Below are positions 1,710-7,978 of a stretch of DNA of 34,224 bases, one piece after another. This stretch comes from a virus. Its lineage: Duplodnaviria > Caudoviricetes. The DNA lies in IMG/VR virus record IMGVR_UViG_3300016636_000019, positions 1 to 34,224 of that record; one strand, given 5' to 3'. Each line of letters starts with the position of its first letter. Positions within the stretch are counted from its first letter, which is position 1. A program made the position numbers and the translations under genes. The notes beneath the pieces were generated by a model. The model ran no database searches and was not told the origin of the DNA. It saw only the letters and a program-made list of their open reading frames with translations.

Positions 1710-2354
1710 CTAGTTTAGTGCATTGACTAAGTCAGTCAATGCTTGTGCTCCTTGGTTGCAAATTATACTATTAACATCACTGTCAGGCGGTAGCGACACA
1801 CGTACGGCTTGAGGTATTGCATCTTGTAATCTTCTGGCTAGTTCCTGCCCTGGATTTGATCCATCTTCTTTAGCATCATTGTCAGTGCAGATAACTACCG
1901 TACCTATACCATCAAAGCAGCGAGCAAAGTGAGGCTTCCAAGCGTTAACTCCTGCAACAGCGACAGCAGGATGACCAGCAAGTGTTGCACTGATTGCATC
2001 TATCTCTCCTTCTACTATTAGAACTTTGTTAATAGCGTTTAGTATTGCGTCAACATTATATAGGTGGTGCTTCTGACCAGTAGGTATCATGTACTTAGGG
2101 TCTCCACCATCAATGCGACGGAACTTAAACCCTACTACACCAGCCTCAGTTATATACGGAATAGACAGGTGATTCTTAATTCTATCTTCATGCCCAGGTG
2201 CTACCTCTGATACATAACCAAGCATGAACCGACTAGCACCTTCAAGAATCCCACGCTCTTTTAGATACGCCTCTGCTGGTGAACCAGCAAGAGCCTCGTG
2301 ATATTGCTTGGCTGCCCTAGTCCAAAGTTCAATTAGCTTTGGATTAGTTCTCAT
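1710..2354 (-). CDS. DNA primase, catalytic/TOPRIM subunit without a zinc-binding domain
   Basis: AEAYLKERGI, LGYV, IPY, KFRRI..PKY, LIVEGEIDAIS and CTDND (TOPRIM DxD). Likely start is ATG 2354 after AGGAG. Confidence 0.9.
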   Translation of the reverse strand: MRTNPKLIELWTRAAKQYHEALAGSPAEAYLKERGILEGASRFMLGYVSEVAPGHEDRIKNHLSIPYITEAGVVGFKFRRIDGGDPKYMIPTGQKHHLYNVDAILNAINKVLIVEGEIDAISATLAGHPAVAVAGVNAWKPHFARCFDGIGTVVICTDNDAKEDGSNPGQELARRLQDAIPQAVRVSLPPDSDVNSIICNQGAQALTDLVNALN

Positions 2355-2550
2355 CCCACTCCTGCTTTGCCCATAAAGTAAAGTTAATATAAACAAATAT
2401 TAAATCTAATCTTAATACCCTTGCATCTACATATTCAATTAGATCTAGTGAGTCTAGATCTTCATAGACAGATGTCATTGTATGGTATTGGATACCAATA
2501 CCCCAACAATAAATGCGGTTAAACCCTACATATAAACTAAGTCTTCCCAC
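2344..2550 (-). CDS. Hypothetical protein (68 aa)
   Basis: GTG start coupled to the upstream TAG; its stop overlaps the primase start and it fills the gap exactly. Confidence 0.55.
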   Translation of the reverse strand: MGRLSLYVGFNRIYCWGIGIQYHTMTSVYEDLDSLDLIEYVDARVLRLDLIFVYINFTLWAKQEWDEN

Positions 2551-3828: not shown

Positions 3829-4182
3829 TTATCTATGTCCATTGTAACCTGCCTGTTTAAGCAGATCGACCCAGAGTTGCGCTGGCATTACTGCGTACGA
3901 CTCTGAGACATTTGTAGTGCCACGCTTTTTTATTAGCACCACTCCAGTCTCGGCATCTGCATGAGTCATTTCATTGTCTAACTCTTTCAGATACCCAGAG
4001 AGATCTATCTTCTTTTCATTCTTACATTCTACTACAACACCATCTATCCCATCAATATCACCAACATCATCATGACGACCAGCACCATATGCTCGCTCGG
4101 CACAAGGGAATCCATTAGAGACTAGCCACTTGGCTACGTCTCTTTCGTATTGAGAACCTTTGCGTTTACTTGGTGTTGACAT
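3829..4182 (-). CDS. Holliday junction resolvase (Hjc-like PD-(D/E)XK)
   Basis: KRKGSQYERDVAKWL...ERAYGAG..DVGDI...VVVECKN. Confidence 0.8.
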   Translation of the reverse strand: MSTPSKRKGSQYERDVAKWLVSNGFPCAERAYGAGRHDDVGDIDGIDGVVVECKNEKKIDLSGYLKELDNEMTHADAETGVVLIKKRGTTNVSESYAVMPAQLWVDLLKQAGYNGHR

Positions 4183-4441
4183 AATGATTTACTAATATCT
4201 GTTTAACTTCTATGCCACGTTTCTTTCTAATTCTCATTCGTTCTCTAGGAGAAGTGCCACCCCATATACCATATGACTCATGAGCAAGACCCCACTCTAA
4301 ACATTCTTTCATTACTGGACACTCCTTACATATTTGTTTAGCTTTCCGTTCTTCACTACTAGTAGCACTGTTATGTTCTTGAAAGAAAAACTCTAAACCA
4401 ATTTCTTTACAAGTTGCATTAGTGAAGTCTGGATATTTCAT
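4166..4441 (-). CDS. whiB: WhiB-family Fe-S transcription factor
   Basis: C-x-AKQICKECPVMKECLEWGL..ESYGIWGGTSPRER: four cysteines plus the G[IV]WGG turn. Confidence 0.95.
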   Translation of the reverse strand: MKYPDFTNATCKEIGLEFFFQEHNSATSSEERKAKQICKECPVMKECLEWGLAHESYGIWGGTSPRERMRIRKKRGIEVKQILVNHYVNTK

Positions 4442-4940
4442 TGACTAGTACCTCAATCGGTTGTAATTGATTAGCGTCCATAACTAATCGAGTGCCGTAA
4501 CCATAGTCATGTAGGTAATGATTAGCAAGAAAATTTTCTCGTGTTGTCCAACCAATTACATCAAATAAACTATCCACATGTGGAAGTTGTTTATCCCCAG
4601 AAAACTTTACAAGTACAGCCAAATCAGATACAAATAATTCTGGTGCATTAAATATTAATTGCGGTAGTGTCGACGTCTTAACCTGTATAGATCTTCCCAA
4701 TACTGTCTGGAGGTCGTGTCCGTTATCACCGCTAGGCGTAACCGTATCATCCGTCGGTAACCCAAGGAGCCGAGCACATGCCACCTCACCCAAGCGACCC
4801 ATAAGATTAACGGAATACGAGGAATTATTTTTATCAAACTTACGATCCGTAACATCAAACTCCTTCTTATTCTTTCTAACCCTGTGGATAAACCTAAGTG
4901 AATCCATAATCTCATCTTCAGTTAATTCTATTACTGCCAT
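4419..4940 (-). CDS. Putative PD-(D/E)XK restriction-endonuclease-fold protein
   Basis: GRLGEVA...GDNGHDL...IQVKT pattern (E...D...Q-x-K). Confidence 0.55.
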   Translation of the reverse strand: MAVIELTEDEIMDSLRFIHRVRKNKKEFDVTDRKFDKNNSSYSVNLMGRLGEVACARLLGLPTDDTVTPSGDNGHDLQTVLGRSIQVKTSTLPQLIFNAPELFVSDLAVLVKFSGDKQLPHVDSLFDVIGWTTRENFLANHYLHDYGYGTRLVMDANQLQPIEVLVNEISRLH

Positions 4941-5764
4941 TGTCGCAGTGTCCTTGCTCTATTTAATTCTGCTGGTGAGTTATATAAACTCATATGACTT
5001 GGCTCTACAGATAAAGTAATATAGTTCTCGGCTGTTGGATCTGCCTTACCATGGCGATTCTTTACAACAGCAACCCTGTACACATTGGCTATGCCATCTA
5101 ACGCTACGCTTAGTACCAGTTCAGGTAAGGCGGAGACCTTACCCATTAAAGCTTTACGTGGGGCTGGGTAGTTAGGCTTAGACATCTTTTCATTTTCAGA
5201 TACATGGTGTAGAACTATGAACGCAGATTCATATTCTCTAGCCATGTAATGGAATGCAGACATTGCATCACGCAATGCTGTCCACTCATTGTCGCTGACT
5301 GCAGCGACATTCATTAAGTTATCAATATAGATTGCTGATGGTGGAGCACCGTGCAATTCAATCCAAGCTTCAATCTCTTCTTCAATATCTTGTAAAGAAG
5401 GAGACGGATCAAAACTAAATCGAATATGCCCAGCACCATCAGCCAGTGCATCTTCTAGGAGGACAGATGCCTCCGAGTCCATCATTCTTTCCACATCAGT
5501 TACTGATCTATCCATAAGGATTGCACCTGCACGAAGAGCAATCGTTCGAGAATCAGAGTCTGCTGAAAAGTATAAGGCTGGAGTCTTGGATGTAATTGCG
5601 TACCATAAAGCAAGCATGGTTTTACCACCACCTGGCTGTGCTGCAACCAAGTGTAATTGTGCCTGACGGAATACAACTTGATTGCTGGTGAGTTGAGGTA
5701 GAACTTCAGGAAGGGCATGCCCTGCTGGAGATTCCACTCCTACTACTTGCAATAAGGTACGCAT
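4931..5764 (-). CDS. DnaB-like (SF4) replicative helicase
   Basis: Walker A AAQPGGGKT, YFSAD, Walker B IYIDNL, VLHH and VKNRHG. Confidence 0.9.
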   Translation of the reverse strand: MRTLLQVVGVESPAGHALPEVLPQLTSNQVVFRQAQLHLVAAQPGGGKTMLALWYAITSKTPALYFSADSDSRTIALRAGAILMDRSVTDVERMMDSEASVLLEDALADGAGHIRFSFDPSPSLQDIEEEIEAWIELHGAPPSAIYIDNLMNVAAVSDNEWTALRDAMSAFHYMAREYESAFIVLHHVSENEKMSKPNYPAPRKALMGKVSALPELVLSVALDGIANVYRVAVVKNRHGKADPTAENYITLSVEPSHMSLYNSPAELNRARTLRQWQ

Positions 5765-5767
5765 GGA

Positions 5768-6217
5768 TTACTTAGTCCAGATTGTTTCGGCTTCTACTGC
5801 ACCTACTGTAAATGGCTTTGGTCCTTTAGCAGGATCAAACCAACCTACATAAGCTTTGCCAGCCTTGGAAGTACCCTTCTTCTTTGCATACTTACCACGA
5901 CCATCTGGTAATTCTGGTGCATCTGGATGTCCATATGTCCATTCATTACCATACTTATCTTTGACTACCTCGATAGAGGTTGGTCCAGAACTAACTACTG
6001 TTGGATTTAATCCAGCATTAGTTAATGCCTGCACCGTTTTATCCATTGATGTCATACCGCCACGACCACCTAATGCAGTCTGTAGTTCGGTTGCTGCTTT
6101 GATTGCCTCAATAGCAGCCAACATGTTGGTAGCAAACTCTTCAGCACTATCACCTCGGACAGTGAATAGGTCTGTACTGTTTAGCTTACCTGTATATGAG
6201 AACTTAGATTCAGTCAT
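5768..6217 (-). CDS. Hypothetical replication/recombination-module protein
   Basis: 149-aa ORF with AAAGGA SD between nuclease and helicase; C-terminal KKGTSKAGKAYVGWF. Confidence 0.65.
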   Translation of the reverse strand: MTESKFSYTGKLNSTDLFTVRGDSAEEFATNMLAAIEAIKAATELQTALGGRGGMTSMDKTVQALTNAGLNPTVVSSGPTSIEVVKDKYGNEWTYGHPDAPELPDGRGKYAKKKGTSKAGKAYVGWFDPAKGPKPFTVGAVEAETIWTK

Positions 6218-6894
6218 CTAGTTCGTCCTTTCTTTCCCTTTGTTGTTGGTATTTGCAGTGGGAAATCTTTACTGCCCATTGCTGGACATTTATCTTGGAA
6301 CGAACACATACGGCATGAATCACCTACGGATGGTGGAAACCATCCGTTCAATACCGAATGGTTCATTGCACCAAATACATAATCAAAATAATCTATTGTC
6401 AGGTGCGACAGATCTATCAGATCGTCAAGCGAACCTGTTCTTGTCATGAAGAATGCGCCCCACTTAGGGCGAACACCTAAAGCTTTTTCAATACCAGAGG
6501 CATACAAGCCTGCTTGGATCATACCAAATGGTGTCCTAGAACCTGTCTTGTAATCAACGATTACCAAGTCTTCCCCCACTTGGTAGATCGCATCTACAAT
6601 AAAGCGAACTGGTGTTCCCCCGAAGTGAACATCTGCTGCCCATTCAATTCCAGGACGACCATCTGGCATGGTAGCAATTTTCCAACCAGAAGACTCATAC
6701 CATTTCTGGTAAGCCTCTACTTGTTTAAGTCCATCGCTTTGCCAAAACGATAGATCTTCACCGTCTGGACGTAAGGTGGTCTTACGTCCAGCAGTCTTCC
6801 ACTCTGTCGAGGGAATCCCAGACTTGTCTTCGACTTCCTTGACGGCGTCATTAAATACCTCAAGCCACTTCTGTGTCAAATCAATCGAGGTCAT
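6214..6894 (-). CDS. Cas4/RecB-like PD-(D/E)XK exonuclease, C-terminal fragment
   Basis: GIE...RFIVDAIY...IVDYKTG...QAGLYA and C-terminal CRMCSFQDKC (3 of the 4 Fe-S cysteines). Has its own SD AGAGGTGA; start could be 6900, 6897 or 6894. Confidence 0.9.
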   Translation of the reverse strand: MTSIDLTQKWLEVFNDAVKEVEDKSGIPSTEWKTAGRKTTLRPDGEDLSFWQSDGLKQVEAYQKWYESSGWKIATMPDGRPGIEWAADVHFGGTPVRFIVDAIYQVGEDLVIVDYKTGSRTPFGMIQAGLYASGIEKALGVRPKWGAFFMTRTGSLDDLIDLSHLTIDYFDYVFGAMNHSVLNGWFPPSVGDSCRMCSFQDKCPAMGSKDFPLQIPTTKGKKGRTR

Positions 6895-7105
6895 CATCAC
6901 CTCTTATGTAATCAGGGTTATCCACAGGGGTAGGTGCGGTCATAGGAGAACCACAGTTCGCACAAAATGAATCAAGAAACCACATGATGAGTTCGTAGTT
7001 TTGAAAGATGGCACGTATGACCTGTATGTTTGAGCCACAGTTGATACACTCATTGCTTGGTATACCACGTTGATCAATTGTCAAGTTGCTTCTTGTAAAA
7101 CTCAT
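6881..7105 (-). CDS. Small CxxC...CxxC zinc-binding protein nested between the two nuclease fragments
   Basis: IDQRGIPSNECINCGS...FLDSFCANCGSPMTAPTPVD; ATG at 7105 with GGAG 10 nt upstream; overlaps both flanking ORFs. Confidence 0.75.
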   Translation of the reverse strand: MSFTRSNLTIDQRGIPSNECINCGSNIQVIRAIFQNYELIMWFLDSFCANCGSPMTAPTPVDNPDYIRGDDDLD

Positions 7106-7265
7106 GGTTGAGCCACTCCAGCATGGAGTGGACAGCAGAACCAGCAGCAAGATATACGGCAGGTTTCTCTGGAACCATAGCTACTTTGCTAAGATAGTAT
7201 TTTTGTGGACAGGATTGCCAAGTAGATAACTGGCTATAAGATCTATGAGGGGGAAGTTCGTTCAT
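7074..7265 (-). CDS. Cas4/RecB-like exonuclease, N-terminal fragment (63 aa)
   Basis: HRSYSQLSTWQSCPQKYYL...AAGSAVHSMLE is the PDDEXK_1/Cas4 N-terminal motif (S.S.L..CP..Y; G..VH), ending at TGA 7074. Confidence 0.88.
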   Translation of the reverse strand: MNELPPHRSYSQLSTWQSCPQKYYLSKVAMVPEKPAVYLAAGSAVHSMLEWLNHEFYKKQLDN

Positions 7266-7312
7266 AACCAAATAATAATCTAACCAAGTGACAATCTTAG
7301 GTAACGACACAC
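7266..7312 (-). promoter_or_regulatory. Putative promoter of the replication operon (leaderless mRNA)
   Basis: TATTAT (7277-7272) lies 6 nt upstream of ATG 7265 with no SD; GTGTC/GACAC motif at 7306-7310. Confidence 0.45.
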
Positions 7313-7363
7313 CTGTAATTCTGACCAATAATCTGATAAGGTTGAAGGGTGGTGGGTGGGAAA

Positions 7364-7382
7364 GGCTCGCTCAGGGCGAGCC
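7364..7382. other. GC-rich inverted repeat in the divergent intergenic region
   Basis: GGCTCGC-TCAGG-GCGAGCC, a perfect 7-bp stem. Confidence 0.6.
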
Positions 7383-7402
7383 GTGAAAAAGAATAGGAAG
7401 AT

Positions 7403-7978
7403 ATGACATACCCTAATTGGTTTGAAGCAACGGATGCTAGACAAAACTTTGAGAAACATTTATTACCATTAGCGAACACAGCCTTGCGCTGTGTTCAAAT
7501 AGGTGCATATACAGGAGATGCTACTAAATGGATGGTAGATAATATTTTAAAACATGAGGTGTCTTGCCTTATAGATGTAGATACATGGCAAGGATCTGAT
7601 GAACCAGTACATAAGAACATGGACTGGAATGATGTATGGAATACATACAGCGAGAAGAATAAAGAAGCTATTAACTCTGGCAAAGTTATACCAACAAGAA
7701 AAAGAAGTGACGTTTTCTTTGCCATGTCTGGCGGGGGTTATAACTTTATTTATGTAGATGGTGACCATACTGCATTTGCTGTATTACGTGATGGCATGAA
7801 TGCATATGAACAGACAGTTGTTGGTGGGCTCATTGCATTTGATGACTATACATGGAGCATGAGCATGGGTGATTTCTATGATCCAAGATATTCAATAGAT
7901 ACATTAATACATTTATTAAATGGACGAGTTGAAAAGATTGAAGAGAACTCTCAACTCTGGTTAAAAAAAATCCAATAA
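7403..7978 (+). CDS. Class I SAM-dependent methyltransferase (Methyltransf_24-like)
   Basis: VQIGAYTGDAT, DVDTWQGS, FIYVDGDH and GGLIAFDDY motifs; AGGA SD; the only credible plus-strand gene. Confidence 0.88.
   Translation: MTYPNWFEATDARQNFEKHLLPLANTALRCVQIGAYTGDATKWMVDNILKHEVSCLIDVDTWQGSDEPVHKNMDWNDVWNTYSEKNKEAINSGKVIPTRKRSDVFFAMSGGGYNFIYVDGDHTAFAVLRDGMNAYEQTVVGGLIAFDDYTWSMSMGDFYDPRYSIDTLIHLLNGRVEKIEENSQLWLKKIQ

Follow-up and report, generated by a model that had tools for sequence, protein, structure and literature searches.

The exonuclease of the phage analysed here is probably made from two genes. Judged from sequence, a short N-terminal chain (N) and a larger catalytic chain (C) would co-fold into a single nuclease of the Cas4/AdnA type, with a 4Fe–4S cluster predicted to bridge the two chains, and a third gene (Z), lodged in the break, would be a passenger. 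The window, that is the whole stretch of DNA analysed, is a virus record assembled from metagenome data, 34,224 nucleotides long, that occurs in freshwater metagenomes and has an estimated completeness of 82%; a WhiB-like regulator gene in it points to an actinobacterial host.

Gene layout at the break

N, Z and C are overlapping open reading frames on the minus strand, each in its own frame. The elements of the locus and the neighbouring genes are the following.

3829–4182, minus strand: RusA-like Holliday junction resolvase gene (neighbourhood)
4166–4441, minus strand: WhiB-like regulator gene (neighbourhood)
4931–5764, minus strand: DnaB-like helicase/ATPase gene, in the same operon as the nuclease (Pfam and PHROG)
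5768–6217, minus strand: gene for a 149-residue protein, next after C and coupled to it by an ATGA overlap
6214–6894, minus strand: C subunit gene, 226 residues from its likeliest start, with the catalytic motifs and three Fe–S cysteines
6881–7105, minus strand: Z gene, 74 residues, ATG at 7105 and TGA at 6883–6881, CxxC...CxxC, in the third frame
6896–6903, minus strand: Shine–Dalgarno-like site GAGGTGAT for C, within the 3' end of Z
6904–6906, minus strand: in-frame TAA just 5' of the C start
7074–7265, minus strand: N subunit gene, 63 residues, ATG at 7265 and TGA at 7076–7074
7272–7277, minus strand: −10-like hexamer TATTAT, 6 nt 5' of the ATG of N

A sequence-only reading of this DNA had proposed this layout, with N ending at 7074, C in another frame with its own Shine–Dalgarno site and a TAA upstream, and a 74-residue gene overlapping both; it is confirmed, and the start of C is refined to 6894. 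N carries the motifs HRSYSQL..CPQKYYL..GSAVH, comprising an SxS motif, the first Fe–S cysteine (Cys19, codon 7211–7209) and a G-x3-H helix (His46). The remaining signature residues lie in C: Glu84, Asp101, Asp114-x-Lys116, Gln127-x3-Tyr131 and the Fe–S cysteines Cys194, Cys197 and Cys203. Both products match the Pfam family PDDEXK_1 above cut-off, N over positions 3–50 of the profile (E = 2.9e-7) and C over positions 88–247 (E = 4.2e-7), and phrog_1870 is covered by N at positions 11–67 and by C at positions 75–293.

Directly after the TAA at 6906–6904, the C frame reads GAG GTG ATG ATG. The second ATG, at 6894, is the likeliest start, because the first is missing in relatives (ACG in L018 and CTG in L034); it leaves a gap of 179 nt between the stop of N and the start of C. 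Z shares 32 nt with N and 14 nt with C. Its start at 7105 is supported: of 50 distinct N genes in close loci, 48 have ATG or GTG at the site, against a CAT to CAC ratio of 156 to 138 at the other histidine codons. TTG 7084 may be an alternative start, since Z begins about eight codons later in some relatives (L050 and L133). All 35 distinct close loci have a TAnnnT hexamer 5–8 nt before the ATG of N, as do 10 of 11 loci of another split clade, compared with 32 of 782 internal ATGs. This hexamer is missing in distant N-Z-C loci, and in those inspected another gene overlaps the start of N. A leaderless transcript start at N, at the head of the replication operon, is likely. The sequence upstream of N varies among relatives (loose ends at 7266–7399 in the contig comparison).

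Among the 26 window proteins scanned there is no cas locus around the nuclease, whose neighbours are the helicase, WhiB, resolvase, primase and structural genes, and no second PDDEXK_1 copy was found in the record, which is 82% complete. The 149-residue gene at 5768–6217 likewise comes after the nuclease in the split relatives inspected; its similarity in the Atlas is to mycobacteriophage L5/D29 gp49-type proteins, with PF25690 on 15–20% of the cluster members, which is a lead only, and its product is a candidate partner of the nuclease. The primase (1710–2396, minus strand, 228 residues) and the DnaB-like helicase (4931–5764, minus strand, 277 residues) are short stand-alone genes, each covering just part of longer PHROG profiles. 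A Methyltransf_24 gene (7403–7978, plus strand), in opposite orientation to almost all other genes, sits between the replication operon and the structural module.

Position of the cut in the fold

The sequence-only reading had suggested aligning the halves to intact homologues. In such an alignment N and C abut at residues 51/52 of P0131, an intact relative: N aligns to residues 4–51 and C from residue 61, its start mapping to about residue 52. In the model of P0131, built with 89 sequences (pLDDT 96), the cut is predicted to fall in loop 51–56, between helices 34–50 and 57–76. A break in this loop, between two helices of the N-terminal lobe, would leave no part of the fold lost. N runs on for about nine residues past the intact homologue, and this tail is partly conserved in the clade.

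The profile of the intact family matches the nuclease domain of AdnA (E = 3.5e-17), as does the model by Foldseek (E = 1.2e-8), with further matches to ACE1, Dna2 and Cas4; the solved relatives are the AdnA nuclease domain (6ppu and 9np6), ACE1 (9iab), Dna2 and Cas4. Motifs and the 1+3 cysteine pattern are those of the actinophage ‘Cas4 exonuclease’/PDDEXK_1 (PF12705) solo nucleases, for example of cluster A mycobacteriophages. Mycobacteriophage members are described as belonging to pfam12705 (PMC5704561), and the cluster of Cas4 as being held by four conserved cysteines (PMC4625639). Relatives in cultured phages share about 25–35% identity and, unlike the nuclease studied here, are in one piece under one exonuclease gene in all 60 matches listed (1291 records). 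Whereas the single-chain PF12705 nucleases carry their cluster ligands in one polypeptide, here the ligands are divided over two genes.

Conservation and selection

Using C, 80 IMG/VR loci were fetched, two of which end before N; the N-Z-C split is seen in all of the 78 close loci that hold both halves, so that the search of relatives proposed by the sequence-only reading found the split and its nested gene conserved. One of these loci (L001) is identical to the window in protein sequence and may be the same phage. The arrangement persists to about 47% identity in C. A search for homologues of C returned 92 proteins, with identity down to 47%, and 85 of the top 88 are 218–237 residues long, the other three being shorter pieces.

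The median dN/dS (Nei–Gojobori, non-overlapping parts) is 0.032 for N, 0.083 for Z and 0.125 for C, as computed on pairs with pS of 0.05–0.6 (511 of 1128, 279 of 990 and 1112 of 1830 pairs, respectively), which are not independent of one another. All three values are far from 1, and constraint is strongest on N. The earlier contention that these are not pseudogenes is therefore upheld by purifying selection. His7, Ser9, Ser11, Cys19, Gly42, His46 and Glu50 are invariant in 43 split N proteins, and Glu84, Asp101, Asp114, Lys116 and Gln127 in 103 C proteins, with Tyr131 at 90% or more. The three Fe–S cysteines of C are kept in 103 of 103 proteins and Cys19 of N in 43 of 43; the complete 1+3 set exists only across both genes, no single chain carrying all four ligands.

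Recurrence of the break and circular permutation

Among the best 150 representatives of 50% clusters, 95 are intact, 50 consist of C only, three are permuted and two are other or unclassified; a second search, with 91 new proteins, added four more permuted forms. Most C-only proteins are unlikely to be random contig fragments, because 69 of 85 begin no more than four positions away from one profile point; the E, D, DxK and Q residues and the three cysteines are retained in all 85. The seven permuted proteins (P0118, P0120, P0125 and P0312–P0315) are single C–N chains circularly permuted at this very cut, with all catalytic residues and cysteines kept, and one of them represents a 14-member cluster from four sources. 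When metagenome loci were scanned for their DNA context, permuted forms were found in none of 32 loci, nor in an earlier scan.

The split loci are related and do not count as independent events. Three DNA-verified split groups form separate clades (support 100, 100 and 96 in a quick tree of 58 rows), and joining the split forms into one clade is rejected (AU test, p = 0.0004; 13 of 32 rows, LG+G4 quick tree), with the group set by gene layout, though a FastTree had been viewed earlier. This would mean several fissions or several re-fusions in the family, and the direction may be either. The motif P[AGS][VL][YFP] of N occurs in all 45 N-Z-C proteins and six of seven permuted ones, compared with 12 of 147 intact proteins and none of 16 other split forms; of the seven permuted N parts, four have their nearest relative among N-Z-C proteins and three among intact ones. 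This distribution is compatible with re-fusion of the permuted forms from a split ancestor, without proving it. The wider picture, in which an Fe–S staple is naturally built over two gene products and fission and fusion lead to permutation (repeated splits at one loop, a lasting heterodimer with a gene slot, and C–N chains re-fused from split ancestors), we put forward tentatively, as somewhat short of an even chance.

The gap as a proposed slot and the likely role of Z

Pooling the loci of distant C proteins, and dropping those that were identical, cut before N or (one locus) without an assignable start, gave 109 distinct split loci: 91 are N-Z-C, in 16 N abuts C, and two have unrelated inserts of about 60 residues. 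A metagenome scan of 33 loci (including L225), at least two of which appear to repeat earlier contigs, gave two N-Z-C, nine abutting, seven with other inserts (counting L236, scored in this way since its Z match falls outside the gap), 12 intact and three incomplete loci. Z is thus missing from 18 of the 109 distinct split loci and from 16 split loci of the metagenome scan, and wherever the sequence of a locus extended far enough, N lay next to C. The split is independent of Z: distant phages break at the same loop without it, and Z occurs elsewhere.

Small unrelated genes of about 50–100 residues, some of them hydrophobic, lie in the same break in other phages (L113, 2313–2498; L115, 793–984; L226, about 2180–2500; L236; L245–L247), which suggests that the break is a swap slot for small genes in other lineages. 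Once the gene had split, its junction would have turned into a slot where small genes enter and leave. The loop tolerates in-frame insertions as well: three intact homologues (P0159, P0222 and P0249) have 60–160 additional residues in it.

Z has four invariant cysteines (Cys20, Cys23, Cys48 and Cys51), and its model is a small β-strand domain (pLDDT 82). Its Pfam matches are to zinc ribbons and below threshold; searches of PHROGs, cultured phages and PDB folds returned no match, the structural matches are three uncharacterised viral models only, and matches in the Atlas have low shared-feature counts. Compared with intact nuclease homologues it shows no similarity (probability 3%), so that it does not represent a part that the nuclease has lost. 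A Z profile retrieved 23 loci, of which 21 are nuclease loci; in the other two (L220 and L221) there is no nuclease within 2 kb, and in L237 Z lies about 1.9 kb downstream of an intact nuclease gene. Away from the break (L220, L221 and L237), genes of the Z family are near WhiB or other small genes. P0113 is a sister of the clade in which Z occupies the gap.

Z is likely a passenger in the break with a job of its own. We consider it unlikely that Z serves the N–C nuclease of this clade as a genuine third subunit or as a regulator, such as a DNA-binding or assembly factor co-opted after insertion. Such a role would account for features that a passenger would not need, namely purifying selection (dN/dS 0.083, four invariant cysteines) and the persistence of Z in the gap in all of one large clade (support 100), which spans about 47–100% identity in C. 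The predominance of nuclease loci among those with Z (21 of 23) likewise speaks against a mere passenger, and translation of Z is coupled with both halves. Other clades, however, have split enzymes without Z, and the top match of the permuted-profile scan (L226) has an unrelated insert of about 100 residues; homologues of Z occur off the break, in one case downstream of an intact gene, and the intact homologues have nothing similar to it. As a general requirement, the third subunit that the sequence-only reading had entertained finds no support, given the split loci without Z and the Z genes outside the break.

A probable two-chain nuclease

With Cys19 invariant in N and three cysteines invariant in C, we infer that the ligands still meet across two chains. 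N would pack against C, and a 4Fe–4S cluster held by Cys19 of the small chain and Cys194, Cys197 and Cys203 of the large chain would staple the two together. Judging by its family and its gene neighbourhood, the enzyme probably processes DNA ends in recombination-linked replication, alongside the helicase and the resolvase encoded nearby. The earlier reading of a two-chain nuclease that shares one cluster gains support from conservation, selection, the recurrent break and circular permutation, and the complex itself keeps the standing of a prediction.

The halves might instead have parted in function, C being a cluster-free nuclease and N having a role of its own, which we regard as improbable. 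In one Cas4, DNA cutting is reported to proceed in the absence of the cluster (PMC8610317), so that C might act alone, and a precedent for divergent halves is described in TTV1 (PMC4625639), where the Cas4 gene is divided between TP1 and gp7 with Cys1 in one open reading frame and three cysteines in the other, and where the N part is now a nucleocapsid protein. The TTV1 cut, as described there, falls inside QxxxY, catalytic residues are lost and the product, its N part serving as a capsid protein, is apparently inactive, whereas here the cut lies upstream of the entire catalytic core and all residues are retained. Moreover, the invariance of Cys19 (43 of 43) and of the three cysteines of C (103 of 103) makes most sense if they still meet, N stands beside C wherever the length of the locus allows a view, N is under the strongest constraint of the three genes, and the permuted chains re-unite the same two parts.

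Proposed translation of the two chains

For the two-chain nuclease, we propose one mRNA, likely leaderless at N, with stop/start coupling through N, Z and C, and with C initiating from its own Shine–Dalgarno site. Separate translation of N and C is supported by signals in the sequence, namely the frames and this site. Of 91 Z loci, 85 have a Shine–Dalgarno match of at least 4 nt before C, as do all 18 loci without Z, compared with 291 of 667 internal ATGs; with the threshold at 5 nt these numbers become 57 of 91, 7 of 18 and 53 of 667. Many of the junctions between N, Z and C are simple stop/start overlaps.

Production of a single full-length protein by ribosomal bypassing, frameshifting, RNA splicing or a split intein is very improbable, even though the frame steps are always +1,+1 in the 77 closest distinct loci and both junctions are alike (xATGA). 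Bypassing, frameshifting and splicing are unlikely, given that the reading frames differ between loci and that C is preceded by a ribosome-binding site of its own: further out, the steps from N through Z to C are +1,+1 in 77 loci, −1,+1 in seven and +1,−1 in seven, and in abutting loci +1 in 13 and −1 in three. Only 18 of 91 Z loci have the last codon of N again in the landing zone, and the window is not one of them. Folding of the gap mRNA is at the level of shuffles or worse (z = +0.75), the gap has no Rfam match at E up to 1, and its sequence evolves like a protein gene. By these sequence comparisons, recoding of N, Z and C into one protein is unlikely, and they argue likewise against the bypassing that the sequence-only reading had offered as an alternative. 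Contigs of four RNA runs fall on other parts of the window or belong to a library that is probably DNA, and none of them crosses a junction. An xATGAG motif at both junctions, considered as a recombination or recoding signal, was rejected; it is lost in distant loci and arises from start codons overlapping stops.

Bypassing in T4 gene 60 uses matched take-off and landing codons and a structured non-coding gap. The present locus resembles it in a coding gap with a stop at its beginning and differs in having no matched codons, no strong fold, a gap of 160–210 nt that is coding, and variable frames. No intein match was found, and there is no space for intein halves, because the end of N and the start of C are adjacent residues of the intact homologue; the intein site described in Cas4, in motif III (10.1101/2025.01.02.630785), differs from the position of the break.

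Finally, an assembly error or a decaying pseudogene, for which the metagenome-assembled origin of the window could speak, is refuted by the same layout in 78 of 78 loci, by strong purifying selection and by contigs of independent studies that span the break without indels (X5 over 6364–7500 and X4 over 6836–7157).

Relation to known split genes

Phage genes in two parts with a third gene between them are described for nrdA-a/mobE/nrdA-b of Aeh1 and for the T4 topoisomerase genes with mobA, in which the pieces form an active enzyme without splicing (PMC3045599 and PMC2988022). The present arrangement is alike in form. In those systems, as described, the split was caused by the insert, a homing endonuclease, whereas Z has no match to a nuclease family or fold; in addition, the split here persists without its insert, is seen again in several lineages and has a counterpart in circularly permuted forms. 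Genes in pieces of the Aeh1 type are also marked by new terminal tails required for activity, and the partly conserved extra residues of N would be the candidate for such a tail.

The words ‘split’, ‘permut’ and ‘fission’ do not occur in the main text of the Cas4 phylogenomics paper (PMC5704561), and the main text on isolated Nanopelagicales phages (PMC10202952) does not mention exonuclease, Cas4 or RecB. No description of this split was found in the literature searched, which comprised main texts and few subscription journals. Within that scope, the locus adds a new form to the phage ‘genes in pieces’, one whose insert is not of the homing type.

Significance

For annotation, the nucleases of these phages will seem N-terminally truncated, and the 63-residue partner gene is easy to miss. 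A natural split site in a Cas4-type nuclease would also be useful for engineering a switchable enzyme. If the proposal is true, these phages have a natural two-chain nuclease with an Fe–S staple, and the occurrence of intact, split and permuted forms at the same cut in one family would make the fission–fusion route to circular permutation directly testable.
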